Assembly (NCBI GenBank): GCA_016932855.1
Contig: JAFGCB010000023.1
Span: 4,825 to 68,824, forward strand
Direction: 5' to 3'
Length of the DNA stretch: 64,000 bases
Source of the DNA: Candidatus Omnitrophota bacterium
GTDB lineage: Bacteria > Omnitrophota > Gorgyraeia > Duberdicusellales > Duberdicusellaceae
The translations under genes were made by a program, and so were the position numbers. Numbering within the stretch: the first letter of the stretch is position 1; each line of letters starts with the position of its first letter. Under the pieces are notes generated by a model that did not search any database, had not been told where the DNA came from, and was given only the letters and a program-made list of their open reading frames with translations. Positions 13,709 through 50,000 of the stretch are shown here, one piece after another.

Positions 13709-13714
13709 CGACGA

Positions 13715-13749: not shown

Positions 13750-13763
13750 ATGTCGGAGTTGAA

Positions 13764-13788: not shown

Positions 13789-14060
13789 CTAACATAAACT
13801 GACTTAGAAAATAAATTAATCATCCTCTCTATGGTTCTCTTCCTTGTCTTTCCGCCTTTAAATTGTCTTTCTCGTCTAAGGGCCTTCGATCGCGAATCAA
13901 ACTCCTCATAATAGACTAACTCTAGAGGCCGCCTATCCTTAGTAGATAAAACCTGGCCCTTTGAATGCCTATAAAGACGCTGGGTTAAATTGTTTGTATG
14001 ACCGTAATATTTCATGCCATCAGCGCATTGTAAAATATATAAATAATAAATTGATTTCAT
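13782..14060 (-). CDS. Small GIY-YIG nuclease-domain protein
   Basis: SIYYLYILQCADGMKYYGHTNNLTQRLYRH matches the GIY..YIG..R..H core, followed by a conserved E. 92 aa. Starts 26 nt after the giant-gene stop. Confidence 0.85.
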   Translation of the reverse strand: MKSIYYLYILQCADGMKYYGHTNNLTQRLYRHSKGQVLSTKDRRPLELVYYEEFDSRSKALRRERQFKGGKTRKRTIERMINLFSKSVYVSP

Positions 14061-14086
14061 AGCAAACTATTGCGGTTTTTCTTCCT

Positions 14087-17000
14087 TTACTTCATCCCCG
14101 GCACCCTCAATTCATCTCCCGGCCGGATTAAAGCAAAAAGATATTCCCGGCCATTCCTGGTCCTCGTCTCTATTTCTATCCCGTTAGCCTCGGCAATATC
14201 TCCGAAAGTAACTCCCTCAAAACTCTGAGCAATATCCCACAGAGTATCGCCTTTATTGACTGAATATTCCCTTGTATCGTACTGCGTACCGGGTACTGCG
14301 TACCGCGTTGAATTTAATACTCCACATTCGTCACCCGGCGCCTCCCTTAAAACTGCCTCAGGGGACAACCGACTAGTGATACCCGGTACACGATCAGACG
14401 CCAACGGCGAAATGAATTCTTGTTCAGTCCCCGGCACCCGGTCCGTTGCATTCTTTACAAAACTGCTTGAATCAATTTTGTAAACTTTGGACAGGGGTGA
14501 GCTGGAAATAACATTTGCCCCGTCAGCCGGACTAAATAACTGCTTAAGTTCCCACGGCAGATCGCCAAGGATATCTTTAATTAAAGATTCATTTATCTTC
14601 AAGAATTCTTCAACTCTCGGCTTTTCTTCATTTCGAAATTTCAAATACGCTTTTGATGGAGGCCAGACTAACTGATATATATTCTCCTCTTCTAGAACAG
14701 CTAAGTAATGCGTTACTCCCAACCCACCCCATCGAGGTGAAAAACATAACTGCTCTAACTGCTTTGCTTTAAGTTGCGGATAGTCATCGCGCAATCGAAA
14801 GACATTTTTTACTTCCAGGAATTCATGTAATAATACATATAGCCAATCCGAAGGTGTAAAATAAAAGTGGTCTCTTAGATTAAAACGCATACCCACAATA
14901 TTAATTATAGTACCTTTGGAAGCATCTACGAATTTAACTTTACAAATGGCTGGACCGGCTGGTGTTTCTGATAATAAATCACTCGAACTTGTGCCTTCTT
15001 CTTCTATTCTCTTTTTCTCTTGACGAATACGCTCCCTGTAATCAAAACCGTTCTCCTTTAACCTATCTAAGGTTAAAATAATCAATTTATTTAGTATTTC
15101 TGCTGTTACTTTAATAATTATTTCTTTATCTTCAACAGCAATTGATTTTCTTGTCTGAATTTTTCTATATGCAGTAAAATAGCTGTCCCATTCTTTTTCA
15201 GAAAATTCTAATTTTTCCCAGAGGCCCAATTCTGTTAATTCCTTACGTACCACCGGCGAGCTCATGGTTCGACTACCGCTCAACACTAGCCCTGAGCTTG
15301 TCGAAGGACTTCCCCCTTTCTTTACAAATCTGCTTGAAACAGATTTGTAAACTTTAAGAGGGGAGCTGACCATATTAGAAATACGTATATAAATATCCAA
15401 AATCTTGGTAGGCACATTTTCTGTAAATCCCTTTTCTGAACTAAACAGAAAATAAGCTTGATGCAGACTGTGATCCCATAAATCTAACAACTCCAAAGTC
15501 TCCTCTTTTGCTTCACTAAAAATAACAAACCCGTATTGACTTTCAACAAGTTGTCCCGCTTTATTTTTATCTAAAAAATATTTTATGTCCGCTAAAGGAT
15601 AACCTAGAATAAACCCTTGTAATATATCGCGGTCAAACCCGGGTTGTTTATGCGAATTCAAGGCAGTAACTATAATATCTATTTTACTCTTTACCTCTTC
15701 AGATTGACGCACTCTAGCGGTAAGAAAGTCGAGTTGCCCCTTAGTAATAAGGTCGTTTTCTACCAAGAAAGAACCCTCGTATTTTAATCTCGAAATAATG
15801 TTAGGCCATAAGATAATCTCGTTATTGGTAAAAACTAACCCTAAATTCTCCTGAGCTTCCGGAATGTTGCTTATCTCGCAAGCTAACTGCACTATATCTA
15901 TATCAGGCTCATAAGTATATTTTATATATGCGGACTTCACGCCTAAAAAAACAGACAAAGCATCCGGATACAATAACTGCTGTTTAGCTTTGTCACTAAG
16001 CTTAGTGAAGGCTCTCTTAACAATTAACGACCTTTCCTGCAAGGCACTATGCGCCGGCGAGCTGATTGGTTTCTTCTCAACCGGATAAATAGAAGCGTCC
16101 CCTTTTTCACCATCTGTCATTATTTGTTCCCGTAAAGCCTGCGGGTTTAGTTTCCACCTCCTCAATTGAGCGTATAAGGACTCTTTAGATATACCCAATA
16201 TCCCGGCTGCCTGTGTAAAATTACCCTTTGCTTTAAAAATAGCCGCAAATAATCTCTGCTTTCGAAGCTCCTCTATCTTTATACCGTAATATCTTAATTT
16301 TCGATATACTTCGTTTTTGTGCCATCCCAATTCAGCAGCTACCCGGGGGATATCACACTCCATTCTGATTACAAGCTCTTTTAATTCATCTGCCTGGCTT
16401 TTTTTAGTCGGCCGGGAATTTTGAGCTTCTTCTTTTATTCCGTATTTATCTAACTTTCTATAAAAAGTCTCAATGGGCATTCCTAATATCCTTGCTGCCT
16501 TCCTAAAGTTATAATTTACATTAATAAGAGCTTTTTCAATCATCTGCCTTTCCCGTTCTTCAAGGGTATCCCATACTACAGGAACTTGCAGTTTTTGATT
16601 ATTATTTATAATTAAAATGTCTGGAATTCCGCCGGACCAGCTGTATATCTGGATCTTAAAGCTAAGTATGGTTTTTGTAACCGCGTACCAGCCTTTTGAA
16701 ATCTCTTTTATTCTACCGCTTGCGATAATTTCTAATGTCCTATCCTTACTCCTTTTATCGGCTATAAGAAAAGGTATGTTTAATAAAGCATGAAGGCACA
16801 GTCCGGAATAACATCTTATAGCTCCGGCCTCAACTGCTGCCCTTATAGCGGTACCCATACGCTGTCCGGAAAGCGCGTTCTCCCGAAAATAACCTCTCAT
16901 CTGCGGAATGGACTTATCCAACATATTCAATACCTCGGAACCCGATAGAACATCTTGGGAAGTTTTTAAAGGAAATTCTCTAAGGACCGCCTTTTTTAAC

Positions 17001-20000
17001 TCATCAGTAAATACATTCCCTTGCAGGTTAAAACATTCGGGATTTTGACTTAAAAACCGTATTTGCTCATCCAAAGTTAATTCCTGCATTGCTTGAGCAA
17101 ATTCTTTCTCCTGAACAATACAGATTTTTCTTTGCTGCCATTCTCCCTTATCAAATAAAAGTCTTTCCTCCTTAGTCTCGTTTAATGTATATATACTTCC
17201 GACTTCGCTTAAATTAGAAAAATATAAATACCCTTTGCTACCCATAATAAATGCTTTACAGCCAAGACTAAGTCTGGTAAAGGCCGCGGGCATAATAATG
17301 TTCTCCCTTACCAGCATAGAAATGATGGATTCCATGCGAAAATCATTACCTCTAAAGACAACTATGGACTCCTGCCTTTTACCCCTTAAGCCTAGGTTCT
17401 TAATCCAGAACATACCTTTATCGATACGGGCGGGCGCGATAACTTCCGAGTCTTTTTCTGCCCATAACAGTTCTGCTGCCTCAATGCAAGATACTCCTCG
17501 GCTACTCCCTTTGAAGCTTCTAACTTTCAATCCGCTATTGTAAGGAAACCGGAAACGCGCGCCGCCGGTTTTCGGACATCCGATGCAAAAATCATTCTTA
17601 ATTAATTGCTTTATCTGCCAAGCCTGAGGAGGAGCGTTTCTTACCAAAATATCGTCAAGAAAGGTTTTTAAATAAATATTTTCTTCAGCGCCTACGCTTT
17701 TTTCCAAACAAGTTTCATATCTTGCAAGAACATAACCCTTATGGTATACAAAGATTTCATCTAGGGTGCGTAAGAAAAATAGGTAATTGGCATTCCTATT
17801 CTTTTTAATTGACCTACCCAAGGTCTTTCTCTCAGCTAAAACAGTAAAAAGATTTCTTCCGAAACCATCATCTTGATCCATCCTTACAACTAAATCCTTA
17901 ATAAGAGTATAATTTCTACTGTGTAAATGAGGTATTAAGAATGTAATGGGCCTAAGCTTAATACTACTTGTTTTTCGAATCCCTTCGATACGGGTATTCC
18001 TGACTCTCTCGGCAATAACCCTAAGTTGATCTTCTCTAGTTCCAAAATGATTTCTTAAAACCCTGTTTACAAAAGTTTTTGCCGGCGGATGAGAAAATAA
18101 CTCGTCACCGCTTAATATGCCGTGTTCTGAAAAAGATACACCGCCTTTTGTAGACTCGCAGAACACAAAATCTCCTTCGGAGTAAACAATCAAAAGAAAA
18201 TTGCCTTCATCTTTTATATCGATCAATGCCTTTACCGCGTATTCTCTTTCTTTATCCGGAGCGTCAAAAGAAATACTTACAGCCCGGCCCCTTAGAGCTT
18301 CTCCGAAATTAAGACTGCCCCCTAACTCAGATCCGAAAACTATACTTCCGCTATCCATTGCATATTTTTTAACATCCTCTGGACTAAGCCCCTTTCTGAT
18401 AAATCCCCTCACAGCGCTTCTGTATACTTGTAATAAACCTGGATCTATTGATACCGGCGAACTTAAACCATCAGACACATGCCTTGCCTCAGAGTTGTTT
18501 TTCCTTACATCACATTCAAAGCGAACAGTAACCAGACCTCTTTGCGATTGAATACCTAGATGGGCGGCTTGATCACCAATTAACTTGTTAAGTTCTGCGA
18601 GGCTCCCATACATTAAGGTTTTGCCACGGCCATATTGCCTGAAAAACTCAGATTTGCCGGTCTTAGCGTATAAAAGCAAGAGCTCCACGGGATCGGGTAT
18701 TTTAGCAGGGTCAAATTCACCCTGATTTTCAATGGTAAACACAAGATGGCCTTGCCGTCCAAGCTTACCTGGTGTAAAAAAGTAGCTCATCACTACATCA
18801 CCTCTGTCGTCTTTTCTGTGTTTTATCGCGTTCTCAATCATTTCACCTAGTATATTTTCTATGGGCCCGGCAACATCATCACCAAACACTCTATTGAGGC
18901 TATTTCTAAATGCTACCTGCCAAAGAGCACTCACTGCAGTCATATCTTTTTTAGGAGCTTCGTTAATCACTATTCTTCTCTTTATTGAAATTTTTCCTTC
19001 TTCCGACTCCCGACCCAAGACTAAAGACTCAAAACCTTCAACTGGAGAATTTAAAGAACGCCTGATTTTTTCCAGTTCTCTGCCCGCCCGGTCGAGATAA
19101 CCACTGTTTCTCAAATCAGACAGTGCTTTCTGGTAATAAATTTCGTTGACTTCAAACGTACCTTCATACTCATCGCATTCATCGTCGTAAGGTTCTATAT
19201 CCCTTTTTCCCCATTTCTCCGTCAATACCACGTATTGAAAAGGCATATCTTCGTTCTTCCGGAACATTCCCCCAAGGATAGCTTCCTCGCCCAAAGACCT
19301 CAAGAAATATATCAACATCGCGGAGTTAGCCAAGCACGTATCCAGCCTAAAACTCCTGATGACAGCTTCGATATGCAAAACATCGATTGTATCAACCGAA
19401 GAACTAGCCGATATTAGACTTCTTGTTTTCGCATTATAACTATTTCCCAGTTCTCTAAAAGCGGCTCCAACCAAAGAGTCTCTGTTTTTACAATAGAAGA
19501 CTCTAGCCGGATCAACGCCTAACCTTTCGGCAACTAGTTTTTGAGTTATCCGCCTTACTTTTTGAGACTTAAAATATTCTATTGCCTGCAGGATTCTACC
19601 GCCGATAAGAAGGCTATATACTGCTTTCTCCACCTCGGTATTAGCTAGGCGGCGTAAGCGAAGGGTCTCATGGCTTACCCCCGCTTTGTTACAAATTGTA
19701 GTTATACTAATCGGTTTTACTGTCGTAAGCCAAAGTATTTCCACTGCCTTAAGGATAAAAAAATCGCTTTTATTGCCGGTAGGCAATGTATCCATCACTT
19801 TACCAACCTCAGGATTGGCACGCCTGCGCCGGCTAACAGTAGATTCAGAAAGCCCGGTTCTTTGAGTAACTAAAGCTTGACCGCCTGGCATGCCTTCAGA
19901 TGCAATATATGCCGCTTCCTTAATAATAAGACGACCGGCTCTGGTAAATTTAATAACCTGGCTATTTACGGAACCCTTGCGATTTGTACCGTCCAGTGGC

Positions 20001-23000
20001 GAGCTCAACCCATCTTCCGACACCCCAAGCTCGATGCCCGTAACTGCCTCTTCTCCAATAGAATCTGAGCTTTGATTATTTCCTGGAAATTTCCTAAAAC
20101 CCCATAAGACCGCTGGTACATATAGAGCCACACCTAACAAAAATCCTTCTATGCTTGCATGCCATGGTAAATAAAATAAGTTATAGGAAATACCAATCGG
20201 CAATAATATCTTCGCCCAATTTCTTACTTTCGTCTTCTCTGCCGAGTTAGGTTTCTTATATGTCATATAAAGTGAATAGACCATAAAAGGAGGGCCTAAG
20301 GCTCCTACAAGAAGGTTTTGGGTAGTAAAACTTAAGGGAAGAGAGAATATTATGCTCAAACCTATACCATAATACGGCCAAGCTGTGATAATTGTTTTAC
20401 GCATGTTAGGAATCTTGTCTTTTAATATAGTTACAACCCCTCTGTTTTTATTTTCCGGTAAGCTTTTCTCAACTAAACTTTGCATAGAAAAAATAAGAAA
20501 AAGAGAGACTACTGCTGTAGTAATCTGATCAGCACCGCCAAGCAAAACGCAAGGCAAAGAACTTTTTAGCCATATATTATAAGTACAAGGCCAAAACCAA
20601 CCAAAGAAAAAGAAGGTTAATCCAATAGTAGCACCTAATCCCTTAAAATTAAACCTCTTTAGATTTAACAGCTGGCCGGAAATATCTGCTATGGCTCTAA
20701 AAGTAAGAAAACTAACAAAGGTCCTCAAATTAACAAACCCTATAAATCCTGGAATATTCACTGAAGCAAATAATTCACCTAATGGTATTTTAGGCACGTA
20801 CTGTAAAAGATAGAATGAAATACCTATAACTGCAGTTGTTATAGCAACTACGGGGATAGTTTTACGTAATCGCGTTAGCTGGTTAGAATTATAGTCAATT
20901 TTTTTAAGGGGCGAGCTGATGATTCTCTCGGTTTGCGGTTTGCGGTTTGCGGTTTGCGTAAAGGATTCATTTCCGGAAATTGGGCTTGAGGCATTTTTGT
21001 TTTTATCCCAAAACTTAGATTTTATTGGTGAAGAAGTTAATCCTTTTATGGATTTGGCAGGGCTTGATAAAGATATGCTTATTGGCGGAGCATTGCCAGA
21101 TAAACCTCTTTTAACAAACCAATTATTTAAAGGAGAGCTGATTATTCTTGTTTTATTTGATAGCTTTTTTCGGCTAAACACATAAGGAACTTCTACTACA
21201 TCACCCTCACTTAGCGTCTCATGGTTTAAATCATCACCATCTCTACCAATGGACGCATCTAAAGAATAACTTCTTAATATAGGAAACTTCTTTTTAATTG
21301 CATAGCTTTCTCTGGCTAAAGACGCCCAAGCACCTCTACGAAGAGCTTTTTCAAGCGGAACAGTAAAATCGTAATCCATTACTGCCTGATAAAATCCGAC
21401 TAATATAAAGGCTCTTCTATCTTCCGGTCTAAAACATCTATACCTATATGCACTCATCCAAACAAGTCTTTCTATAAGGCTTCTATGAATTCTACATAAA
21501 ACATCAAAAGCTCTGTGTTCGTTTTGCTTAATAAGTAAAATTAATTGGTGCGATTGCTTACTTAATATTCTATCAAAATTAAGAAAAGGATTTTCTAAGA
21601 TGGATGTATCTATTTTTCTACTGCGTAGAGAATTATTCAACTTCTCGATTCTAAGTTGCCTTGTCCTAGGAGAAGGAGATTTTTTCTTCAAAGAAACCCA
21701 ATCAGCATTATCTTCGAGATTAACAAACCATATACCTGAAAATTCACGAGTTCCTCCGCCGCCGCCACCAAAGAGAGTAACTTTTTGCCCTGCTAATTTC
21801 TTGTCGTGTAAATCGTAAACAATTGTATTAGGACTATGATTAAACTTACTTGCCACTTCAGATGTAGTTAAGTAACTAGGATTAGTATAGATTTCATACT
21901 GCCTGTGGATTTCTTTTACGATTTTAAGAAAATCATATATATCTATTCCCTTAAATCTAGACTCAGAAGAACTTAAGCTTAGTAACGTATCTTTTAAGAT
22001 ATTTCTTCGCTTGCCGAATTCTTGATTTAGTATTTCAGAAAGTATGTAACGTTTAGGGTTTTTCACCAATTTATAAAAAACTGCCTTATAAATATCGCAA
22101 ACACCATATTCATTTATAGCTTTCTTAGCTTGCGGCAAAGGGATAATCAAAGCCTGTTCTTTATTCAAACTATTCAAGGCATCTACTGATATGTACCATC
22201 TTCTGCCCGACTTCTTTACTCCCAATCTTTTCCTCATCGAACGTTTTCTGTTTAACATATTAGAAAAAACGCTTCTGTTAACTCCCAGCACCAAGGCAGC
22301 TCTAGAAAGAGTAACAAACCCAGAAGCATTATCATCCTTAACAACTTCTGGCTGTAGAGCGCCTATCCACTCTTGATCAATTGATAAATTTCTTATAACA
22401 GCCTCCAAAACATTAATTCTTTGCCCCTTAACCCTAACCCAAAAATTCTTGTTATACCTCTTATCTGGTATACTTCTTAATGGTGAACTAACTATAGATG
22501 CTTCATCGAATAACTCAGCGGCCGTATATCCTGCTTCAAAGATTATTTTTTTTCTAGTAGAGCTAATACGTTTTGCTAATATTTCTTCTGGCTGGGATAA
22601 AGATCCTTCTCCGTCAAGCTCATGAACTAACCATTTATCCATAAGCGCTTTTGTTTTGCTAGAAACTTCATTTTCAAATCTCTTTAGCACTCCTTCAAAA
22701 TAAAAACCATTTAAGTTATCTAGAATTCTAACACGCAAATCTCTATTCAAATCCTTTAGAAAATCTATAAGAGCAAACTCTAACCAAAGAGGCGCTCTCC
22801 TAGCTCTAGTTCTTAGAGTATTAATAACCATAGATACCCAATCAAAGGCAATCCAATCTTTACTACCAATAACCTTATGTATAAGCGCATTAAGCGCGAC
22901 AGTTTCTTTATCTTCTCTAAAATAAATTTTCTCTAATAACGACATAAGCTCTTCTTTCTTTTGCGATTTATTCCAGCTGGGATTAAACAACATAGACATA

Positions 23001-26000
23001 TATCCACAAACAAGCTTAAATATGACTTCAACCGCGCTTAAATAAGCTTTGGATTCTTTCCCCGGGTTAACAATGTGTTTAATAAACTGTATCTTACTCT
23101 CTAGGATTTCAATTAATACTAAAGTATGCTCTCCAGATTCAGAATTTATATTTAAATTATTAATTATGTAATTTAAATAGTGCTCGCCACCTGAACCACT
23201 ATAATCTAATAAAAGATCTCTTAAAATACCTCTTTGGGTTTTTACTCCATTACCAAAAATAGCAACTGGTGTAGTTAAATCAAAAAATTCTTGCTCTCCT
23301 ATATCATCACTAGCTATGTCCGGCATGCCCTCTTCGTTGGTCCAAAGCATTGCTTTCTCTAACATAGACTTACCAAGATAGTACTTTCTTCTTTTACCTC
23401 TAACATTTAAAGACAACCGTTTCTTTACAAGAGGAATCCCTTTTATCATTAAATCAGGACCAAACCGTGCCCTAAGCTCCTCTAAAGATATTGTTAAACT
23501 TGCACAGTTAAAAACAATTTCTTCAGTTATTGGTTGGTGCACTGTAATGCGCGAAAACTTCTTTGGGCTTCCTTGCTGACCAAATTCACTAGCATTTTCT
23601 GAAAGTTCATTCCTTTGCTTATACTCAAGCAATATAACCTCTGACCCATTAACAGCAAAATTCGCCTCTAATAAGCTCCCTTCTTTAAGGCTAACTGATA
23701 CAGGATAAACTTTACAGAAATTAATAAGATTCCAAGTCTTATTGTGCCTTACGGGAAGATGTCTAACTCTTACCCGCTTAGCCCCAGCCTCTTTTAACAA
23801 CTTAAACATCTTTTTGCTTTTAATGTTAACTGTGCCTGGATTCTCTCTGCTGATAGTCATAAGTAGTTTCCATTCGTTAGAACTATTGGTTGTATATTCA
23901 ACGCGAATAAAATCATCGAAAGTTGTAAAATCAGAATCTACCCCAAGAGAAACTACTCTTATCGGCCAGCCATCTATTAACCAAACAAGCAAACGAGCGT
24001 TACTAAATGGTGTAAAGAAACCTTCATCTCTACCAGCATCTATAAGAAATTTTCCGTTTGAATCAGTTGGCACTCCGGCAACAAACCCAGTCCAAGCTAT
24101 GCGTCGTAAATAAGAAATACTGCTAAAATCTAATTTATAGATGTTTCCTTCGCGATCATACACTTCAAAAGCAATCTCTAACCTTGGATTGCTTCGATCA
24201 AAGGCAGACTTTGACATAGCCCTTAAAAGTGGGGGTTGACCATTGTCTTTTTTCGCTAAGAATAACCGAACTGGCCCAGGAGATTGATGATACACTCCGT
24301 AGTTATGATTAAAAAGCCAAACGGTACTGACTGAAGTCGACTTACTAGCAACCGTAGTTGATTTTCCTTCAAGTACCAATAAATCATGTTCTCCAAAAAA
24401 TTTATTTAAGTAAAACTTTAACAACGCCACTGCTTCTTTTTTCTTTTTTCCTGCATATTGATAATCCCGCTGATGATAAAGAATATTTCCCTTCATGTCT
24501 AGAATTAAATGGTGCCCCCTGGCAACCAAATCTTGTCGCTTAGATACCTCGCCTCTTCTTCCTATTCCGGAATAATTAGAACGTGGACGATTATGATGGG
24601 TATCTTTTAAAACCTTAATGAAATTTCTCTCCCAAGGTTTAACGTCAAACTTATCAGATAGAATATTCTTGGCGCTTGTCGTAACTATCGGACTAGAAGC
24701 TTTCTCGCTTTTATCGCTAAATAATTTCGCTGTAAGTTTTTCATAATCATCCGGCCTAGGATTTACAAAATGCCAATTCATAACAGCTAAGATATCATCT
24801 GCCTGCTCTTCGGTAGCACCAACAAATACTACACCCAACGTATCCCCGATCTCTAAGTCGCGTAATGCTGAAAAGCCTTGCCTTTCAATATTTTTAAATA
24901 CAATCTCTGAAGATTCAGGAAAGACTGTCTTACACGACAGAAGAGTTATTTTTATACCCCATTTTATTTTTATCCTTTCTGATAAGTAACCTAAGCCCTG
25001 GGATATGCAGAAACGTTCATCGGTTAAATCCCTTTCCACTGTAATCTGCCTAAATTCTTGCTGCTCTAAATCTAAAGTTACAAAAGTGTTTGAATCACTT
25101 TTGTAACTTTGTGCCAGGGGCGAGCTGATTGGCTTGCCATCAACGAAATAAATAGAAGGGTCCCTTTTTTCCAATCTATTAAGCACTTCGCCTGCCCTTT
25201 TGACTACAGATTGGGGCAAATCTCCACTTAATCTCCATATCTTATTAAAAGACGCTAATCTCTCTATTTTTGCTGTACAAAAGCAATTACCTATATCTTC
25301 CAACACAGCAAGCGAAAATAGGATAACTTCAGAGCTCGTATCATCCAAAGCTTTACGGTAGAATACATTTCTTACTCTACTCAGGTAAATTTGCCTATCT
25401 GCATCCGGCAATTTATTATAAACATTCCATATAACCTGATATAACTTTAACCTTCTTTGACTTGTAAGTATAGCTTTGCCGTAATGGAATTTTTCATGCG
25501 AAACTTCTATGCCTTCAGCTACCGTTAACAATAACTCTAGGGCTTGCCGGCAAGGATGCTCTAAAGAATCATTAAGGTAAAGATCTACTACCTCCCATTT
25601 AGACTTTTCTAAAGAAGGCAGAAATACTTTCCCCATAACTTCAGTAAAATCACCTAATTCTGTCTGTATGCTGGTTAGCTTAAAGACCAAAGACTCTGAA
25701 ACCTTTTGGCCCAAAAAACTATCAACTATTATTCCTAACCAGGCAACAAAATCTTTTCTTAAAGAGCTGTCTATTGGAAGCTGCTCTATTTTATTGGACA
25801 AAGAAATGGCTAACTTGCAGAAATATAGCTTTTCAACAAGGTTAACATCTTTCTTTCCGGAATTAGATTTTATGCCGGAAAAAACCTTATTTAGTTCCGG
25901 CTCATCTTGAGCAATAATCACAGCTTCTTTCATACACATAAAAGACAAACGAATAAAAAAGTTCTTAAAATCTACTGCTTTTAGTAGGTGCTCTATTAAA

Positions 26001-38000: not shown

Positions 38001-41000
38001 TTATAGCTAACTCCTAACCTTTTGATTAATACGGGAAAATTAAGCAAAATTTTTGTTTCCGGGCAAATACCTTCAAATACTATATACTCTTCTGCTATTC
38101 GATAAGCAGCTAAAAATCTTCTTTTCTCTTTAAAGGCGCCTGATAGACTGCTCATTGGTGTAGTAAACAAAATCCCTAAGAATCTTAAAAACATTATTCC
38201 TAATATTTTTAATTTAGAAAAAGATGATATTTTTTCCAAATCAGCAATATTAATATGGCTGGCCTTCTCTCTTATCAGAGAATCAAAATATTTTTTTGAT
38301 GCACCCAGTTTAAAAATCCTGTTACATAAAGATACATAGCTTTGTCGCATGCTGCTCAACCAAAATGCAAATACTGAGCGCTTTATCTTAACCACAATAC
38401 CCTCGCCCTCAAGAAGCCAAGCCGAACATTCCCAGCCTTTGCCTATAAATACAAGTGGCTTTTTAGAGGTAATCTTTAAAGGCGAAGAGGTAATATCATT
38501 GGCTGAAGACAGCCGTGATAATCTTATCGCATAAGTGCGTATATTGCTATTGTCCGGGGCAAGCATGTAGGCTTGCTGTGAATACTTTATCATCGGAGCA
38601 AAAAATACAGGATCGTTTGTTAAAACTAAGGCATGAGAAAATCCTCCTGATATTCCATATAACAAGTGACCTAGAATGCGGCCCAATGCTTTTCGATCCC
38701 TGTGTATTCCAAAACCAGCATCTACTAGCACCTTCTCGTCCACAGCTGTTTCGGCATCCCCGCTTAACCCTAAAAATTTATGCACATCTTCCCTGTGAAT
38801 GCTAAAATCCAAAATCTCAATCTTTGCATTGGCCAACAGACGGCCTAAAAATACATGGGGACTACCTTTCGGATTCGCAAAGTCTATAGAGGCTAAGCTG
38901 GAGCCATTGTTATACCCAAGTCGATCTAAGAGAAAATAGCCGAATAAATGACTCATAGCGCAGTGAGATAAGAAATGTTTAGTAAGCCATTTCCCTCCTA
39001 TCTCCATACCCCTTCCAAAAAGCTTGGCATCCTCATCTTCCAAGATGTTTAATAAAATCCCTAAATTATCGGCAAAAATGCTCTTAGCTTCCGGACTCTC
39101 GTCTTCAAAATAGTCTATTCCGCATCTGTAAGTACTGGCTTCGACAACGCTTGCTATATGGCCGTCTAAGCTATAATCCATAATAAAGGAATCGATAATT
39201 CCCAAGATTAAACCTGATTCATAGATTCTTTTTTTGTATTTTTTTATAAGCTCGGCGGGATTCTGATCAACGACAATTAATTTGGTAGGGCTGCAAAGAG
39301 CCAACGATATATTACTGACTACCGGCGGGCCGTTAATGACTCCTCTTTTAACAAACCAGTTATTTAAAACTGTATGTATATTTATAAATCTTAAAATTCC
39401 CCTATTGCTGCAAAATACCGCCTGCCTTACAGGTTCTCCTTTAAGTAGGCCGGAAAATAAGCCAGGGCTCTGTAAATTCAGACTCATCTTCTTAAACACT
39501 ATATCCGGCACAGGTAAGGGAGAATTTGACTGGTAAGGAATCTCACTTATTAGAATCTCCTGCGGCTTCTGTTTAAACCGGAAATGAAAACCGCAAAATT
39601 GCACATGTTCGTCTCTTACGGCTAGAGACCTTTCTATGGGCACAATCCGGATTACCTGAACAGGGATAGATGCTGTTGGCGAAGCGGATTGACTGTTTTG
39701 GATATCTTCCAGAAGAGAAATTACTGCATTAAATTTGTCATTATAAGATTTTGCTTTCTCCCGGCTGATATTGATTAATCTAGCCCAGGCCTGTATGCCG
39801 TTTTGAACTTTTTCCTTCTCCTCTAAATCTGTGATTGATTCAATCTTTCCTAAATTAGGAATCACCTCTTCTTTAAAAGGAATATGGTCAAGACATAACA
39901 CATGCCTAATTGAAAAAATCTCTCTTGTAATATCTCTGTAATCCTTAATAATACCTCGCTCAATTAAGCTACGTAAAGTCGTTAAAGCAGTCTCTACCTG
40001 CTCTTCTAGCTGTGTAATTATTCGATCTTGCGCTGGAGAAGAAAAGGTTGGGGATTCGGATTCTAGACTACCAGAAGACCAGCGGATAACAACCTCCCGA
40101 AAAAGAGCACGCAGAGCCAGAATCGCATCACGACGACTTACGAAATTAAGGGTATTTATAGCCTCCATGAAATTCTTATTTCTGGCTTGAGATTCACTAA
40201 GTCTATCAATTATCATTAGAATACGGTCTCTGCCGGAGCCTTTAAATTTCATAAAAGAACTAACTCTGGCTGATCCCATGATGATTTCAATGGCTGCCTT
40301 AATATCATCTCTATTGCCGGGTAAATTTATCAATTCATCCCCTAGTTCGTCTATATCTTTTATCCCGGAATACTTCTGCCGATAGGCCTGTTCTCCATCC
40401 CAGGGAGCAGACGTCCGTAAATCGTAGTCCCCAAGATTCTTTTGCGGAAAAAAGAGCAACGTCTCTTTCATCGACGGTATTATTCTTCTAAAGAATTGGT
40501 CGTAATCTTCTCCCTGACTGGTTACAATTTGACCTATCCGCCCAAGCCAATTATCCCTCCATATCACTTTATCAGCTGGAGAACTGGCAACCGGGGTTAA
40601 TTGATACAAAACACCCCGCTTTGTTCCCAGCGAACAAGGCACTGAAACAAACTTACAAGAAGTAGGCAAAACTTTACCGCCCTCAATAACCCTTTGTATC
40701 ATGACATACAAGAAAGGAATCTGGTCTGAATAGAAAATTTCTCCTGTTTTCGGGTTTCTTCCTCCCATAAATTCCGGCACGCTGAAAAGAATCGTCCCCT
40801 CGGCTCTATTTTTAACCCTGGCTATTCCTTCGACAATCTTGCCGATCTTATCAGGCCGCCAGGTAGGAGGAGCTTTAGAGGAAAGCTGGGCGTTAAGTTG
40901 ACTCGGAGTTATGACATCCGTAGCAACTACATGCGTAAATGCGCCTTTAAGAGTGTTTTGAATTTCGAATCTTGAAAAATCTCCCTCAATAAGATGAAAA

Positions 41001-44000
41001 CTGCCGCCTGCCGCCGAGATAGAAGATTTAAGCTCGCTATATCTTAGCTTCAATGCTGCTATGACTTCGGGTTTTTTCTCAACGCTTACGGCATTCGCTC
41101 CGAAAAGTGCAGCGATAAAAGAAAAACCGCCAAATAAGCCGCTTCCTATATCAAGTAAAGTATCCTTGGGTTTTATTCCCATGCTCTGCACAGTGTATCT
41201 GCCTCTTTCAAAAAGAAGCCCCTCATAGAAATGGCCGCCACCGTCAAATACCAGATCTTTCTTTTGCCATTCTTTCATCCAAGCCGCACCGGAAGGGATA
41301 TGCTGCACGAATACCCGGCGTATCTCTTCTTGAGCAGCCCTGCTGAGAGGCGAAGAACTTGCACCCGAAGTGCCCCATGCCGGTTCGTCTAACCCACCCG
41401 GTCTATAAGCCCTGCCGGTAAGTTCATCGATAGCGTAACCTTGACTTATTAAATCCTGCCGGGTCTGCGTGGATACGTATCTTTCAAATGGCCTTATCTT
41501 ATCAATATTATCAATCGGCGGCGGATTCCTATAAATACGGTCATCTCTATTCCTGTAAAACTCTTTCTCTATTTCCTTAAAACTTAAAGGAATACCTGCT
41601 TTAGCTAAATCCTCTTTGGTAAAAATCGGCTCATTAACTCCTATGGCCTTAAAGCAGTTTTCGCTTTCCGGATGTAATCCGGCTAAGACCAAGGCTGCGT
41701 ACTGGGTAAGATAAAGACGCGTTTCCGGATATTGCAGGGCCAAAGACCAGTAATCAGGGGGTGAAACTCCTACACGCAGAGGCCCAAGCACTTCTCCGGC
41801 TGCCCTCCTAATTACCGCCGGATCAAACATACGCAAGATATTTAAAGGATCATCATATACAGCGGTAACGCCCCTGGATATCTCCTCCTTAACAAGATTT
41901 CTTGCCCTATTAAGGTCCTCTTCTCCGTCTGCCTCCAGAATTCCGCGCACAAAACGATTGCTGGAAACTTTTATCAGCGCTTCATCCTCGTAGAGAAACC
42001 CGTCATAGAGAAAAGTCATAGGCATTTTAATTCTGTTCTTTGACTTAGGATGCTTATTGAACCTTTCATACAAATTAGGATGCAATAAAGGATTTAATAA
42101 TATATCCCTATCCGTAAGAAGAAGACCTCTGCCTATTTTTTGTACCGGCTGGTTAAGAAGAAGCACTTCGTAGCTGCTGTTTTTGAATCTAATGCGGCCT
42201 TCTAATAAAACCTCAAAGGACCCCCCTGAGTCCGAAGTCACCTTAACGGATTCTTTGGTGTATAATAGCGGCTTTAAGGAGCGGTTAGCAAGCTCCTTAA
42301 GCAATTCATCTAATGTATCAAGGGGCATCGATAAATGCAGATTCATTCCGACTTTAATCTCGGGGAATTCCTGAACTACGACCTGTATAATATTTGCAAG
42401 ATATTTTATCGGTAAGGTATCTACGATTTGCCCGTCGCTATTCATATGTCTATTTCTATGGAAAGCATCGCCGGTAAAACTTAAGATTATAAAAACCGGC
42501 TTTTTGCCCCTGGTTTTTCGCTGTAGGTTAGTTTGCCAGATTTCAGATATATTATCTCTTGCATCATCTAATGTTTTTGCCCAGAAACCGCTTGTGCCCA
42601 TGGTCAGAAAATCCGTTTTCGTTTCCAAAATAGCCAACTTGATAAGATCTTTTAAAAGCCAAGGGTCACCGCCGGTAAGAAGAGGCGGAATTCCTGCCTC
42701 ATAAGCCCAATCCAGGGCTCCCAACAACTCAGCCTTGCTTAAAACACCTCTTCTATACAAAAATCCGAGTTGACAATGCCGGCAGGGAAGAACGCAGCGG
42801 CCGGTAAGAACTATTACAAATGGCTCAAAATTGCCGAACATTGAATCTTTAAATCTATTGTTGAGTAAACCGATTATCTTTAATCTCTTCCTATCTAACC
42901 GGCTGTCAATGAAAGAATAGACGTACTTTTCTTTGGCGACTACGCGTTCTTTTTCATGCAAGTATTCCTGCCGGTTCCAGAGCTGATAATTATGCTGGAT
43001 GAGCTTGACTAAAGGATAGACTTGGGCCGCCTCGCAACCTGCGAGATATTCGCCAGCTTGAACAAACATCTCAAACCCTTCCGCGTTATCGATAATATGC
43101 TGGCCGATATAAACAAATCTCTGAAAATCGGAATCGATTTCGGCGATAGGGATCAACCATCGTAAATGAAAAGATCCCTCAAAACTTATCGAATCGATGA
43201 ATTCCAACTGCTTAGATCTGGGGATTTCTTCCCGCAAAAAGTTTACTGCATATAATAGCAAGGCTAAATTAGTAAAGGCTGGCTCTAATAAATCATCCTG
43301 CCCAATATTATGATTGACCATATCATTGAAAATTAAAAACGCCGAAGAAAAAACCCTATTCTTTTCAGAAAGGTATTGGTCTAAAGGATCCTGAATGGGT
43401 CCGGGTAATATTTCCTTTCCGGAAGCCCCGCTTGTACTTTTTGCTTTAATAATGGGTTCTACTGTTTGACCGGACTGGTAAAGTTTAATAAGCTCTCTTA
43501 AGCCTAAAGCCTTCTCACGCGGCTTTCCCATCTGCTTTCTAAGCTCTTGCTTTTTGTGTTCCTTTCTCTGAGTTCTAAGCTTCATCTGTTTCTGGGCTCT
43601 TCTTTTTGCCGCCTGCTTATTCTTCTTCTTAGCCGGGGAGCTTAAGGCCGTATCCTGGAAAATGGAAGATAGTGAGCTTTCTGCCTTAATCATACGGGAA
43701 GTTATTATTGTCTTTCTTATAAACTTTTTTATCTCTCTTAAGCTTGTTACTGCTTCCTGATGGTTCGGTATTACTATAATATCCTGGCCGCTGTTTATAA
43801 GCCTGGCGACCATTAACATTTCTTCGCTCTCTCTTCTTAGATACAGAAGCCCAAGACTTTTCGGACCTTTATAGGGCTGTAAAAACAACCTGCCGCTTGC
43901 TTTTTCAATCTTATTTTCTATCCGCTGTGTTGAAGAATAAAAAACAAAGCAGTCTCTTCCGCCTTCGCTTTTCAGACTGACTCCTCTTATCGAAAGTATG

Positions 44001-47000
44001 GAATTAGTAATAAAATCTGCATGCCGATTTTTTTTAAGAGGACTAGAAGATAAATTCCGTATTTGAGGAAGAATATTATTGAAGGAAAGTCTATTTTTAT
44101 CAAAAACATATATCCTCGTTATCGCACTTAAAGGAACGTCTTCTGCGGCCCTGTTGCAATCATCATACCAACCGGTTATTCTTCGCTTATCAAGCTTAAC
44201 GACAACAGATATAAAGTTTTCCGTTGGGTATTCTCCTTCCGGCTCAAAGGCATAGGGTAAAGCTTTTATCGGAGAAGGATCAGTATCTATAAACGGCCTT
44301 ACTGCATGGGCAGTTACCCTTGAAAGAAGTAATCCTACTTTGGCAACCTCAAGTAAGTCTTTAATCGTTATCCTCATTCCCCGGTATCTTATATCTTGGC
44401 CTGTTTCCATTGAAGCCACAAGGCCTTTTCTTACCTTAAGTGAATTGGGCGGATTAAAATATTCCATATCCCATAAAAGTCTTCTTAATTCTTTCTCATC
44501 AGAAAAAATGCTGTCTTTTAATAATACTGAGGCTGATTTTAAAGCCTTTCTTCTTTTTCCCAAAGGAGAGCTGCCAGATGATGAAGCGGGGATTTCCGGA
44601 TATCGATATGAAAGATGGCTGGGGTTTCTATTCCGGTCGTATTTTGTAGCCTTAACCTCATTCTTTATAGCTATTAAAACTAAATCCGGTGCCCTATCCA
44701 CAAAGAAAATTCCCTGCGTTACTACGCCCGGGGTTATCTTAAGCATCCGCGCTGTCTTGGCAGGATTTATTATCATCTTCCTTGAGAAATCGGCATCGAC
44801 AATAATCCTTCTTTCACGGTCGCCGGGCCTGAATATAGAGCTATCATCGTTTCTTCGTATAGACACCTTACCTGCCCCCATAATCTTTAACATAAACTTA
44901 ACCAGATAAAAATAAGGCTGTTTTACCTCAAAGGGCAAAGAAAACTTGCCGAGAAATTCTTTCGACTTTTTACTTTCAGCGATAATAATTATCTGCCCTT
45001 CATCCTTTACCGCCCGCATATTTGCCAATTCATCGGTAAGGGCTCCTCCGCCGCCTTTGATTGCGTAGCCGTGACTGTCAACTTCATCTGCTCCGTCTAC
45101 GATAATATCTATGCCCAAACCTTTCGCTTTAAGCTCTTCAAGCTCCATTATTTCAAATCCAAGGTTTCCAAGTAATTCTCTGGTCCTTGGCGAAGAAGAA
45201 ATAACAATGATACTGTCCTTTATATCGCCGCAGAATATGTCTAATTCTTCAATAAAATGATTCCAGACATTTGTCCCGCTTCCCGCACCTAAGATCAATT
45301 TCTCGTTTAAATTCTTCTTTTTTAGGGCGGCCTCAAAGACGAGCTCAGCGGCATACTGCGAGACAAGGCGTTTCTCCTGCTCATAGTCTGAGAATTTTAA
45401 AACCCTCTTTGTTCTCTGAAAAACACTTGTTGCGTCCAAGGGCGATGAAAAAGCCTGAAGAATTATGACATCTTTATTTACTTTGCGAATATAACTTTCG
45501 GGGTAAAGACGGCGGGTTGGAGTATCTGTAAGAAAAGAAGATAAAGCGGCCCGGACACGGCTGAGGGACCATCCAGCCACGGAAGAGGTTACCCTCGGGG
45601 AATGACCGCGTCCGAACCGATTCAATACTATATTAAGATTGTTTCTTAGAAAATTAGGCAAGGAATATTTAAAGAAGAGGCCCGGGAGCGCTGGAGTACC
45701 ACCAGCCACGGTGAGGCCACTCCGGGGAAAAACGCTCCCGAACCAATCTAATACTATTTTAAAACTATTATTAAAAAAAGCAAAAGGAAGAATGACTAGG
45801 GCAGGAAGGGCGAAAGGGATAGAAGAATCAATATTAATTTGAGGTGGACTGTTTATTGATAAAGAAAGCCACTCGGAAACCTGAGCAAGACTTGCTGCCG
45901 TAAGTCCAGTGCCTATCCGGTTGCCTCTGTTATGCAACATTTTTGTTTGAAACAAAAGTGTTGCATTAAAATCGCCGCCCAGAGGAGAACTGCCGGAATT
46001 ATCTTCCGTCGGCAAGAGATAATCCTCAAGCTCAGGCCAGTCTTTTAAACAATGTTCAAAGAAATCTACAAATCGATTGCTTTCCATTCTCTCTCCGAAG
46101 GGCCCAAGCCAAGATTTTTCCAGTAAATACTGAAAATAGGCGCCGTCAACATAACCTCTTCTTTTACTGCCTATCTCCTTATCTATACCTAATAATCTAA
46201 AAGTATTTCTTACATCGCCTCTTACGGCAATATCATGCAATAAAACCATAAGATAAGCGTTGATGCTGTCAATCTTTACTGATCTTTTCTTGTTAAGAAA
46301 TTCGGATATTTTTTCAGTAAATGCAGTATTGTCAAACAGGAAAAATAAAGGCCTTAGCAGAAGCTCAGACTCTGATAAAGCCTTCAAAATATGCGGATAG
46401 AAGTGGTACAAAGCCATAAAACAGGCGTATTCATAAGGCACTAAGTCGGCAAGAAGAACCGCCTGGATATGGTGGGTGTCACTGGCTTCATCATAACGTA
46501 TGGAAGGCTTATTTCTTTCAATCGAATCGATGACGATATTTGTCTTAAGCTCTTTCTTCAACTTCGGCCGCCTGGGGAAGTTCTTAACTCTTGTATCCGA
46601 TTGCAGGAACAAATTCCTCGAAAGAAAATCAAAAATTCCCTCAAGCCGTGCCTTAAGCTGACCCTGCGCAAACTCGCCAAGGCTTTTCAGGTTTTGATTA
46701 TCCTTAAACTGAAATCCCTCTTCTGTAATAATAGCTTCGCCCAAATCAACCGATTCAAATTTAACTACTTTTTCGAAGACAGCAAATTCTTTATCCTCAT
46801 AAACTCTATCAATTATCACAAAAGCCGTCCGGTCGATTCCATCGATGACTATCGTTATCGTGGGAGTAAAAATAATATCCGGGGTATGCTTAAAAACGCT
46901 GAGCATTGACGGCCAGCCGGTCTGTTTATCTAATTCAATCGAGACGGTGGGATTAATTATGCCTCCGTGGGGCTGGGAAAAATGACAGACTTCTATGGGA

Positions 47001-50000
47001 AGCAGCTGACCAGCCTTAGATTTTAAACCAATCTCTTTTATAAAGGCCGAGCGTAAGCTATCCCAGAATCCCTCGATAGCCGGCCATTTGTTGATAAACG
47101 AACGGCTAGGCTCCCAGCGGGCCCAGTCTATTATAGCCCTGTATCTACCGTTCTGGATCTCATCAAAAATTAAAGTATGATTTTTTAAAATCTTGAAAAT
47201 TCTCTCTTGGCAGCCATCGATGTTTTCCACCTCCGGCATAATACGAGAAATATTTACGGTAACAGCTATAAATTCAGTAAAGAAGCTACCCACAAATCTT
47301 TTATTAACCTCCTCCTTTACAAACCTCTCTGATTTTACTCCCGGGCCGAAGTGGAAAATCCAATGGCTGCGATCACGCTTCTTTATCTCGGAGCGCAAGT
47401 CATAGGCTATCGATTCTAGTCTTTCCTCAAACCTCCTTAATAACCACAAAGCGATTTTTTCTCCGTAGACAGAATCGTAGCTTAGGCCGTTTACAGGGTC
47501 TATGGAGACTATAAAATCTGAATTCCACCAGGGCATAAACTCCATCTTAACCGGAGAACTGGAAAAACCTTCAGAAATCGTGAATTTGTCGCGATTTTTG
47601 AGCAATCTTGATGCTATCCTTGAGACCGGACCGTCATTTTCAAGGTCAGCTCTGTATTTCAAGCTTACTTCCACAGGCGGAGCTGAAACAATATCAAGCA
47701 CCTGAACGGAAAAATTAAAGATATTATCGAGGCTACCTAAATCCCGGCCATGCTCAGCCATAATAAATATTCTCTGCAAGTAATCTTCAACCAGAAAGTT
47801 AATCCTGTCTATCTTTGTAACTTTCTCCATATCTGCCTTTTGGGTCCACCAGTTATAAAAGAAATCATAAGCCTCGCTGGAAGCCATCTCAGACAACTGA
47901 AGCAATATTTGCCTTACCTGCGCCAGCTCAGAAAATAAAGGCACAACTACTGACACAGCGACTCCCTTATTCTCTGCGGCAATTGGGGGCTTAAGAAACC
48001 CTAGCCGATTTTCAAAGCTTTGACTCCAGCCTTTAAGAAAAACCTCAAGGCCGTGAACAAGAAAAACTTTAGGCGACAATAAATCTGTCTTATATATTGC
48101 GCGGTATTCTTTCAATTCATAAGGAACAACTATACGCAAAGCCGGAGCTAAAACCGGGGAAAGAACTGATATACAACGGTAAAGTTTAGATTGCTTATCT
48201 GGATATCCCATGGAAATAAACTCTTTAAAGTCTACTGTAAGCATATTTAAGAAAGAATCTAGCCAGGCTCCTAGTTCTTTTGCGGACTTAACGCTATTAT
48301 CCTTTTCAAAAACCTGCTTAAGCCTTCCCGCCCAAAACGCGCCCAGAATATAAACTGCTCTTTGGGCTTCAAGCCCTGACACCAGTCTGGAACGCTCCTC
48401 CTCTTTCAATTCCGGCTTATCAAGAATAAACTGGATTATAGCCCTATGCCCAGCTGAAGTACCTTTTCCTTCAAAAATATTATTTGGGTATTCGCCGCTA
48501 AGGGTCGAGTTTAAATAATCTATATCGCCATTAATCTCTTCAACCGAATCATTATCTTGTAAAAATCTATAGACAGCCCGCATGCTCGACTCAAGAGACT
48601 TAAGAGGGGAGCTTATTTCTTTCCAGGTACCGGCTAATACATATACTTCCTTAATATAGTCTCTGGTGTGTTTGCCTGATTTTCTTCCTTGCAAAAGTTC
48701 CTCCATTAAATTCAGCACTTCCTCGGCTACCCTCTCGTCTTTAACTCCAACCACCTTAACATCTGCCCTAACCCCGTCAACCAAACAAAGCTCTATTAAA
48801 CTTACAATGTTACTCGGTGCTATTCTTATATATTTATCCGGGCCTGTCTCTGCGCGCTTAATCCAAATATCAGCATTGAGCTCGCTTTCGACCGTACCAG
48901 CAAAGTCCGTTATATATACGGCGTTTCCAGCGTGCTTTCCTTTTATATCTGCCTTTACAATAATCCTTCTACTGGCTTGAACCAAAGGCGAGCTGGTTGG
49001 CTGTTGCTTAATCGAAAAAACAGAAGCATCCCCTTTTTCTCTACCTTGCTTCATCGATGCTGTGGAGGAATTTTTTATTGTTATTATCCTTTCTTTGTTT
49101 ACCGGGCTTGAAGACTTCTTTTTCTCCACAAGATGGATAATGCCTCTTAGTCCGTTTATGCGCCAGTCGGGGTCTTCAGCAAACAGCTTATCCACCATAT
49201 TATCAGTAAGTCCGACAATAAGCTCAAACTTTAAGGTCCGCAAGGCCGCAAAGCTTGTCGGAAAATAATCGGCTAATTTTTCCAGCTTCTGGGTATAGGA
49301 CCAACACCTGTCACCTATAAGCTTGCGGTAATTAAGATCACCCTTTATTATAACCAGGTCTGATTGAGCCAAATCCTGCTTTAAAGGCCGGGGCATCATC
49401 CTGAAAGATAGCGGCCTTGTCCAGAATAATTCGTCCTTAAGAACAAGCTTATCTGTACGAATATATTCCCTTAAACGCCGGGCGAAATTCCTAGAAACAG
49501 GACTATCAAAGTATTCCAAGGCTTCCAAGAAGATGTAGACGTCTTTAACCAAAGCATCGGAAATAAACTGCGGCCTGTCCTTAAGATGTACGAAAACCTT
49601 TTCCACAAGCCTCAGTTTAAGAAGAAAATCAACCATGAATAAATCAAACATCAGTTCATGACCGAAATTATCGACTATAATATCAAGGCGTTTAATGCGG
49701 CCCGATACTAAAATCCGGGCAAGCCTCCAGGCATGGTTTTTAACCAAGTTCCTACTCCATGCCTTGGCTAGAATAAATCTCTTGGTTTTTTCTTCCATGT
49801 CTTTATCACTGCCGAAAATAAAGGAAGTGCTGCACAAATCAATACGGTTGCCCCAAAGCATGCAATTTACCAGATAAAAAGCGGCGTCAACGTCTTGTAT
49901 TCCCCTCTGAGAGGTAAGATTTTCGTAAGCATTGATAAAAATATTTATCGCACCTGTCTTACCCGGCAAAGTCTCTAATTTCCGCTTTTCAAAAGGATCT

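Follow-up and report, generated by a model that had tools for sequence, protein, structure and literature searches.

The 64,000-nt stretch of Candidatus Omnitrophota DNA presented above (hereafter the window, analyzed at its full length) carries a family of about ten copies of a short DNA repeat, all on the minus strand, at domain junctions and in one reading frame of a single giant open reading frame (ORF). The full unit spans about 96–110 nt and is made of two separable parts, a 51–57 nt core and a 33–39 nt palindrome. The palindrome is not incidental to the peptide it encodes; complementarity of its arms is retained among the copies, and the peptide is not. We tentatively favor the reading that this is a composite in-frame palindromic repeat, similar by analogy to the Rickettsia palindromic elements (RPEs), the repetitive extragenic palindromes (REPs) and the MITEs (miniature transposable elements with inverted repeats), and that it would have spread by DNA-level copying into tolerant linkers of the giant protein that carry the tripeptide SSP. 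The repeat is not a demonstrated member of any of these three families.

Architecture and copies of the repeat

Copies were detected by repeat finding and by nhmmer with a profile built from copies c2, c4 and c6, with E-values from 1e-36 to 1.5e-5. The nine copies listed in the initial annotation were all recovered, within ~10 nt of where it had placed them. The host ORF and the repeat features inside it, with amino acid (aa) positions where needed, are as follows.

14087..63967, minus strand: giant ORF, host of every copy; length ≥16,626 aa, with the frame still open where the window ends; 62 SSP[LAIVM] linker motifs; Pfam ARMT1-like, RpiA, HTH_8, LysM and other domains
14445..14538, minus strand: copy c9; partial core (VDGKPI codons absent, 18-nt deletion), SSPL, hairpin 14451–14488 and KNATDR tail; 103-nt homologous span with c2
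15316..15369, minus strand: copy c8; no core; SSPL, then a hairpin whose 12-bp stem is perfect and which encodes VYKSVSSRFVK
16056..16109, minus strand: copy c7; core only (EKGDASIYPVEKKPISSPA)
20888..20920, minus strand: weak remnant of the core 3' end (ATCAGCTCGCCCCTT, RIISSPLKK); marginal, nhmmer E 0.043
25069..25176, minus strand: copy c6; full unit, core (EKRDPSIYFVDGKPISSPL) plus a 13–15 bp hairpin; holds a 79-nt string identical to c4
26841..26904, minus strand: copy c5; core only, middle diverged (VKGDAFIFSLEDKPISSPL)
30627..30733, minus strand: copy c4; full unit, core plus hairpin c4b (30633–30670); second copy of the 79-nt string
30724..30765, minus strand: hairpin c4a, new; perfect 15-bp stem adjoining the c4 core on its upstream side; encodes ICYITYSSSYVTD; frame and loop (TTCAA) unchanged, compensatory stem changes
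31266..31323, minus strand: copy c3; core only, identical to c2 over 51 nt; SSSL replaces SSPL
34256..34365, minus strand: copy c2; full unit, core plus hairpin 34263–34300 (one U.G pair on the sense strand) and KIATDR tail
45929..45970, minus strand: hairpin h7, new candidate (AATGCAACACTTTTGTTTCAAACAAAAATGTTGCATAAC); begins 13 nt past SSPL (aa 5993); peptide NATLLFQTKMLHN
48976..49039, minus strand: copy c1; oldest and most diverged core (EKGDASVFSIKQQPTSSPL)

The core, AAAGGGGACGCT...CCAATCAGCTCGCCCCTG, was present in seven copies and is translated as (K)KGDASIYFVDGKPISSPL. The palindrome, TTACA..TTCAA..TGTAA, occurred in six family copies, with a constant stem base and loop and a stem middle that is variable and always complementary. 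The form TACAAAAGTG-ATTCAAA-CACTTTTGTA and a perfect 12-bp stem (15321–15351), both described previously, were found as claimed. The plus-strand shadow ORFs that had been taken as independent traces of the repeat end as quoted, and there they simply read hairpins c9 and c2 in antisense. It was wrong to expect an mRNA hairpin from each copy; hairpins were found in six copies (at 14451, 15318, 25074, 30633, 34263 and, previously unlisted, 30726), and copies c7 (16056), c5 (26841), c3 (31266) and c1 (48976) consist of the core only.

Perfect hairpins with stems of at least 12 bp in the whole 64 kb were exclusively these repeat hairpins, and SSP motifs flank several of them. At the c4 locus, the order is hairpin-core-hairpin. 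A covariance model built from the six family hairpins identified h7 (23.6 bits, rough E 0.002; z of –2.6 in a separate folding check), which differs from them both in stem sequence and in frame relative to the palindrome center. Decayed or partial forms of the unit include core-only and hairpin-only copies and c9 with its 18-nt deletion. Directly after hairpin c4b (30611–30630, minus strand, aa 11113–11119), the gene also encodes GKGVSSPL (AAAAGGGGTAAGCTCGCCG), a stretch that resembles a core collapsed between its GGGG and GCTCGCC ends; plain linkers often have a G two or three residues before SSP, and some of the generic linkers may be decayed cores.

Retention of the palindrome and spread of the repeat

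Synonymous recoding had been named in the initial annotation as the test that could refute its interest in the palindrome. When each hairpin was compared with 2,000–3,000 recodings drawn with the gene's own codon usage, all seven hairpins were at or next to the most stable, with a fraction of 0–0.0007 of recodings that were as stable or more so. The z-scores were –4.0 to –5.9 for the six family hairpins and about –4.6 for h7 (p = 0.0007). Alignment of the six family copies showed covariation: 7 of 16 stem pairs were changed on both sides and 87.5% of cells were paired, a level reached by 0 of 500 shuffles, and sliding the stem partner by 1–3 columns lowered pairing to 33–47%. The stem base TTACA/TGTAA and the loop TTCAA were invariant in these six copies. 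The encoded peptides varied (YKSDSNTFV, YKIDSNSFV, YKSVSSRFV and YITYSSSYV in the family, and the h7 peptide in a different frame) with pairing kept, and peptide changes were mirrored (K/F to I/Y, S/T to T/S). Because the hairpins are extreme relative to synonymous recodings and the compensatory changes alter the peptide, the palindrome is a nucleotide-level feature.

The core was rejected as a structured RNA, since it folded no better than shuffles (z –0.1 to –0.8). The module peptide had no match among 5.8 billion proteins. Its reading as a folded mini-domain was not supported either: AlphaFold2 (AF2) with the nine-copy alignment returned a predicted local confidence (pLDDT) of 58, with two three-residue strands in the core and none in the hairpin-encoded part. 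This prediction is consistent with the module peptide being a flexible linker.

Copies c6 and c4 had been reported to share an identical 80-bp string. The identity is real, but the string is 79 nt long (25076–25154 and 30635–30713; 0 chance matches expected), and it widens to 93 nt at 97% identity. The cores of c2, c4 and c6 had 0 synonymous differences (~13 synonymous sites) and 3–7 nonsynonymous differences, with 150-nt flanks that were 19–33% identical, i.e. saturated and at the random level; the flanks are unrelated, as had been stated. The differences among these young copies were all nonsynonymous (G to R, A to P and S to Y), and the young module peptide appears free of any sign of purifying selection. 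In the older cores c1, c5 and c7, the ends AAAGGGGAYGCTT and CCAAYCAGCTCGCC were nearly unchanged, including four-fold sites, and the middle had diverged. Identity was also patchy. The core shared by the copies at 31265 (c3) and 34305 (c2) was borne out at 51 or more identical nt, and downstream of the c3 core only a faint hairpin remnant was found. Because of the zero synonymous divergence, the unrelated flanks and the patchy identity, we infer copying at the DNA level; read from the sequences, these divergence patterns would demand such copying, through either insertion or conversion of short tracts. Of the six frames of the full unit, one alone is open, so the uniform frame and orientation of the copies are explained by survivorship.

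The copies form direct repeats of 51–93 nt with 94–100% identity, and every start-to-start spacing is divisible by 3. Recombination between any two copies would therefore be an in-frame deletion or duplication; between c6 and c4, it would span 5,559 nt, or 1,853 codons. The earlier proposal that the copies are homology tracts is physically true in that they are long in-frame direct repeats, but nothing indicates that recombination is their function. Two further comparisons of linkers with and without the module speak for spread by copying. One member of an internal paralog pair (aa 3775–4010 and aa 15975–16200) has plain SSP linkers, and the other is flanked by core c7 and hairpin c8. The nearest homolog of the domain before c2 (P0008, 47% identity) stops at the corresponding point, and the linker that comes next is unrelated.

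According to the reading that we favor, the repeat family would spread either by transposition-like insertion, as RPEs, REPs and MITEs do, or by short-tract gene conversion. Copies would survive only in linkers, and only in the stop-free frame and orientation. The encoded peptide would be a tolerated passenger in an unstructured linker, and the in-frame recombination tracts would arise as a side effect.

Known repeat families and alternative explanations

The initial annotation had likened the copies to in-frame selfish palindromic insertions of the RPE kind. Of the explanations it offered, this was the best fit, given 0 synonymous and 3–7 nonsynonymous differences, unrelated flanks and pairing that outlasts the peptide, but it does not extend to membership among the RPEs, since the host is an Omnitrophota bacterium. 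The portion of PMC10969869 that draws on Ogata et al. 2000 describes RPEs as ~150 bp long, largely palindromic throughout and in frame within coding sequence, located in many unrelated genes, with 44 insertions in R. conorii. The likeness lies in a short palindromic repeat in frame that is translated as an extra peptide tolerated by the host protein; our repeat encodes its peptide in one frame of the giant ORF. In contrast to RPEs, only 33–39 nt of the ~100-nt unit are palindromic, and all copies were seen in one giant gene, always at SSP linkers. The comparison was made by description, with no known sequence relationship to RPEs, and with a host outside the genus Rickettsia the repeat is at most an analog.

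REPs lie outside genes, start with GTAG, are GC-rich in their classic forms and mostly occur as inverted doublets (REPINs). Our repeat resembles the REP/REPIN system with its REP-associated tyrosine transposases (RAYTs) in having an imperfect, covarying palindrome of 30–40 nt (within the 20–40 nt typical of REPs), with a constant stem base and loop and a covarying middle, as expected for a structure recognized by a protein. Unlike REPs, the seven hairpins all lie inside the ORF, are A/T-rich and have stems that start with GTTAC, TTTAC or TGTTAC; extragenic location, the GTAG tetranucleotide and inverted doublets were not found, and the sole doublet, c4a/c4b, is in direct orientation, 93 nt apart. 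A RAYT-like gene was found in the syntenic region of a relative (L006; 77% identity of the ROK regulator, conserved synteny); the matching region of the source genome falls outside the window. This Y1 transposase-like gene (19504–20232, plus strand, 242 aa) lies 8.3 kb beyond the ROK gene, between a phosphomutase gene and mnmG/gidA, and encodes PF01797 with a HUH motif (MPTHVHLIL). Its best NCBIfam match was 'REP-associated tyrosine transposase' (NF047646) at 62 bits, below the 80-bit cutoff. We regard this gene as a lead, not as evidence for mobilization.

Intragenic MITE-type repeats (ERIC, BOX, Correia) can create in-frame fusions (PMC10969869). Like them, the module is a small, non-autonomous repeat that is read through in frame and adds a peptide segment, but it is much shorter and composite, and its core and hairpin also occur apart. 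Three other kinds of element were considered from the sequence layout and rejected. The order of conserved bases does not fit an integron attC site; there is no template/variable-region pattern with adenine-specific changes as in a diversity-generating retroelement; and there is no regular repeat-spacer array of a CRISPR-like kind.

The core DNA pattern had 0 matches in genome, metagenome and viral contig collections (the source contig is not among them), and the hairpin pattern had 0 matches in viral contigs. The sole match of the hairpin pattern in the three collections, an intergenic palindrome in a GC-rich metagenome contig (L005), was judged unrelated. No family hairpin was found in ~100 kb of other loci, mostly from relatives, and none flanks the relative's RAYT-like gene.

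Several observations weigh against spread as an inserted, passenger-like repeat. The ~17 kb of other DNA of this genome that was available (window 1–14086 and L010) contained no copy outside the giant gene, and no transposase was found in the window. No target-site duplication was seen at the aligned copy ends, and terminal inverted repeats were weak at best (GGGGACG / CGCCCC), a poor match to MITEs. No relative carrying the module was found, so that insertion and ancestral presence are indistinguishable. Over the 103-nt span homologous between c2 and c9, the hairpin had 1 difference in 32 nt compared to 20 in 71 nt elsewhere, which suggests host-level constraint or conversion and not free decay. 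The core ends in SSPL, as do ~50 other linkers with many different codons; the module is tied into a feature of the protein and is no foreign body in it. Finally, h7 has a different stem but keeps the position relative to SSPL, a hint that the position may have a function.

The main alternative, which we rate as rather unlikely, is that the hairpin acts in cis as an mRNA signal, coupled to SSPL, that would slow or recode translation at the linker or would mark the long transcript for processing or stabilization. Translation could then pause to permit folding or cleavage, or ribosomes could slip by +1 on CCC-C into an out-of-frame TAA or TGA of the hairpin region. Six of the seven hairpins begin 4–13 nt downstream of the SSPL codon; the individual spacers between SSPx codon end and stem, 4, 6, 6, 6, 7 and 13 nt, were judged to agree with the 5–9 nt expected of recoding or pausing hairpins. 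Such spacing puts the stem at the mRNA entrance of the ribosome while proline is in the P site. A signal of this kind would also account for stems that covary and are extreme relative to synonymous recodings, for the invariant loop and stem base of the six copies, for a c2/c9 hairpin conserved far above its coding flanks, and for h7, in which the stem is unrelated and the frame different, yet the position and the loop core are the same. Read in the +1 frame, the full units run into a TGA or TAA no later than the hairpin 3' end, although off-frame stops are common in 40% GC DNA. The CCC-C quadruplet occurs in c2, c4, c6 and c9 only, and no canonical slippery heptamer (X XXY YYZ) was found. Stimulatory hairpins are known as a class, for example in dnaX –1 frameshifting (PMC5009743), and share with the present ones a stable stem-loop 4–7 nt downstream of a defined codon string; here, in contrast, the slippery heptamer is missing, and only a minority of equivalent linkers carry a hairpin.

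The distribution of the hairpins also speaks against a signal that acts throughout the gene. Only 6–7 of the 62 SSP linkers carry one, and the 56 SSP sites without a family hairpin had no excess structure over random positions (–7.98 vs –7.99 kcal/mol in the 54 nt downstream, p = 0.40; upstream, p = 0.26); a folding test on 53 of these sites, with windows overlapping the motif, gave p = 0.08. The proposal of a programmed folding pause at every domain boundary is therefore not supported as a general design, and a local effect at the few hairpin linkers is still compatible with these results. No consistent strand asymmetry was seen: the sense strand is the better folder in c2, c9 and c8, the antisense strand is so in h7, and in the others the two are equal, and this opposite asymmetry of h7 ruled out a sense-strand-specific structure made by G.U pairs. 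The stems are A/U-rich, and their –10 to –17 kcal/mol is modest for a roadblock. An Rfam scan of the whole window at the gathering threshold matched no family. Even with such a signal, the zero synonymous divergence and the unrelated flanks would still require recent DNA-level copying.

The module could instead be an ancestral, extended SSPL linker whose peptide acts at the protein level, for instance as a site that a processing enzyme docks on or recognizes. Intragenic gene conversion would keep it uniform, and the palindrome would be a by-product whose symmetry is maintained by intrastrand template switching. The generic SSPL ending of the core points this way, as do copies c1, c5 and c7, which keep KGDA-x-[IV]-[YF]-x-[VIL]-x-x-[KQ]-P-[IT]-SSP. 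Conversion tracts would fit the patchy identity, both in c3, with its c2-like core and diverged downstream part, and in the 47-nt high-identity tract of c2/c9, and the over-representation of two SSP codon spellings (see below) is also in line with this explanation. We nevertheless consider it improbable, because the differences among young copies are all nonsynonymous, as not expected under purifying selection, the hairpin peptide varies freely with base pairing kept, AF2 gave no confident fold, and the peptide was not found in the other proteins searched, related giant proteins included.

The window comes from a metagenome-assembled contig, and the identical copies might in principle be an artifact of assembly or consensus. 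We hold this to be extremely improbable, given that copies of graded divergence (63–100%) all stay in frame within the 50-kb ORF. SRR13394437 was also assembled independently by Logan (L011), and that contig matched window positions 8440–23148 with 1 mismatch in 14,709 nt and reproduced c7–c9. As computed from its record coordinates, with all but the last 1,957 nt read, it ends at ~25,105. This point lies 30 nt inside the c6 repeat and palindrome, a place at which branching of a k=31 graph would be expected.

SSP punctuation and the host gene

The repeat had been described as a linker module. The repeat is real, but the module proved to be a special, extended version of a far more general linker motif. 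SSP occurs 62 times in the giant protein compared to 4.5 expected (13.9-fold) and is by far its most enriched tripeptide; none was present in 4,280 residues of neighboring proteins. The following residue is L, A, I, V or M in 57 of the 62, often with K next. Sites in the window lie, for example, at 34315, 30685 and 25126. Their median spacing is 181 aa, and 17 of 61 spacings are below 50 aa, so tandem SSPs are common without hairpins. Because SSP is encoded by 39 different codon triplets, it is selected as a peptide. Two spellings, AGCTCGCC (13 times) and TCAAGCCC (9 times), are over-represented, which suggests that the linkers share descent. The SSP[LAIVM] motifs look like domain-boundary markers and possible processing sites.

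The host gene has a GC content of 40.6%. Domains above the curated Pfam cutoff were ARMT1-like phosphatase, ribose-5-phosphate isomerase A, HTH_17, Fis-type HTH and LysM, and weak matches below cutoff were radical SAM, signal peptidase II and HATPase_c. These domains form a mosaic of mutually unrelated parts, and transmembrane stretches are present in the ORF. When one of the domains was searched in genomes, matches were found only on contigs of Omnitrophota metagenome-assembled genomes (MAGs), each contig itself one long open frame. The mosaic content and these matches place the host gene in the Omnitrophota giant 'multi-enzyme' class (bioRxiv 10.64898/2026.06.07.730766). It shares with the giant proteins described there and by West-Roberts et al. 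(10.1101/2023.11.21.568195) many unrelated enzyme domains in a single ORF, transmembrane stretches and an Omnitrophota MAG as its source. A HMMER search with aa 9721–10920 returned only single-domain relatives (~200 aa, ~40% identity) inside other long proteins. Two metagenome contigs, ERZ27227317 k141_843609 and ERZ27227320 k141_988085, probably hold the orthologous giant gene.

We also examined related long or giant proteins and loci L001–L003 for lineage-specific motifs of this kind. The punctuation motif was ASSP in P0006, ASSA/SSSA/SSSV in P0009–P0016, VVPGGTSP in P0021 and P0022, and RSELR or RSEVR in P0020, P0025 and P0026 (6 observed vs 0.006–0.013 expected). A shared 'YFYEGPAIAxHG' domain carries, in each lineage, that lineage's motif at the same N- and C-terminal boundaries. 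A literature search on RSELR returned only alginate lyase papers. Three Omnitrophota papers (bioRxiv 10.64898/2026.06.07.730766; 10.1101/2023.11.21.568195; Seymour et al. 2023, PMC10066038) contained no mention of linker, palindrome or hairpin in a word search, in which SSP and the other motifs were not among the words; in West-Roberts et al., the word motif appeared solely within the title of a cited work. These papers treat cleavage only as an open question, and West-Roberts et al. state that the cleavage points of giant proteins are not known and that this is an obstacle to their analysis.

A bolder reading, which we regard as doubtful and offer as a long shot, is that SSP[LAIVM], with a hairpin 4–13 nt downstream at some sites, is punctuation that splits the >16,600-codon ORF into separate products. 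The products would separate by co-translational cleavage or release at SSP|x. The hairpin would hold the ribosome while its P site contains proline, or would promote slippage by +1 at CCC-C into a TGA or TAA that lies off frame within the hairpin or shortly before it. RSELR, ASSA/SSSA and VVPGGTSP at the same boundaries would then be co-evolving processing sites. Autoprocessed multi-effector toxins (MARTX and clostridial toxins; PMC2900308, PMC11296635) offer an analogy only, as huge multidomain polypeptides with short recurring sites between domains; unlike in these toxins, no protease was identified in the giant protein, and SSP|x is a candidate cleavage site only. The conserved domain adjoining c2 (33563–34156; 'AIAIHG ... 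LLVIACN') was considered as a clan-CD/CPD-like linker-cleaving protease, which was not supported: AF2 modeled it with a pLDDT of 88, but Foldseek against PDB returned nothing at E ≤ 0.001, and PDB and Pfam profile searches were empty.

The surroundings of the giant gene yielded further observations. A ROK regulator is encoded downstream. An ORF of 92 aa with a GIY-YIG nuclease domain (13782–14060, minus strand; Pfam E 7e-16) starts 27 nt past the giant-gene stop codon; that a structure-specific nuclease neighbors a palindrome-rich giant gene may be mere coincidence or more than that. Overlapping the last codons of this ORF, upstream of PilZ, is a perfect GC-rich stem of 11 bp around a 3-nt loop (CCCTTGACATCGAAGATGTCAAGGG, 13764–13788), probably a terminator at the end of the giant-gene transcription unit. 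Six short tandem arrays of period 7, with 4–5 copies each and two of them at 100% identity, were also seen. Two lie inside the giant ORF (20929–20958 and 14278–14308), so placed that a single unit gained or lost would cause a frameshift, and the others (3402–3432, 4597–4630, 4712–4742 and 5999–6033) lie at or between the starts and ends of neighboring genes; these arrays may be slipped-strand switches. A minus-strand ORF for a major facilitator superfamily (MFS) transporter (8361–9980) has at its 3' end a tandem repeat of period 15/30 nt with six copies (8371–8462, coordinates given for the plus strand), which would encode a predicted low-complexity C-terminal tail.

The repeat family clearly shows, for a host other than Rickettsia, a palindromic DNA repeat that resides in frame within a protein; by its covariation, the DNA or RNA structure persists and the peptide does not. 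The most valuable by-product of the analysis, and to this extent new, is the SSP[LAIVM] motif together with the lineage-specific punctuation of related proteins, which gives explicit candidate boundaries or cleavage points and could be used for cutting giant proteins for structure prediction. If the punctuation does split the ORF, the giant genes would be bacterial polyproteins with lineage-specific punctuation. The in-frame direct repeats make the giant gene prone to block deletion, duplication and shuffling of its domains, and as a shuffling mechanism they bear on how the giant genes of Omnitrophota grow and vary.

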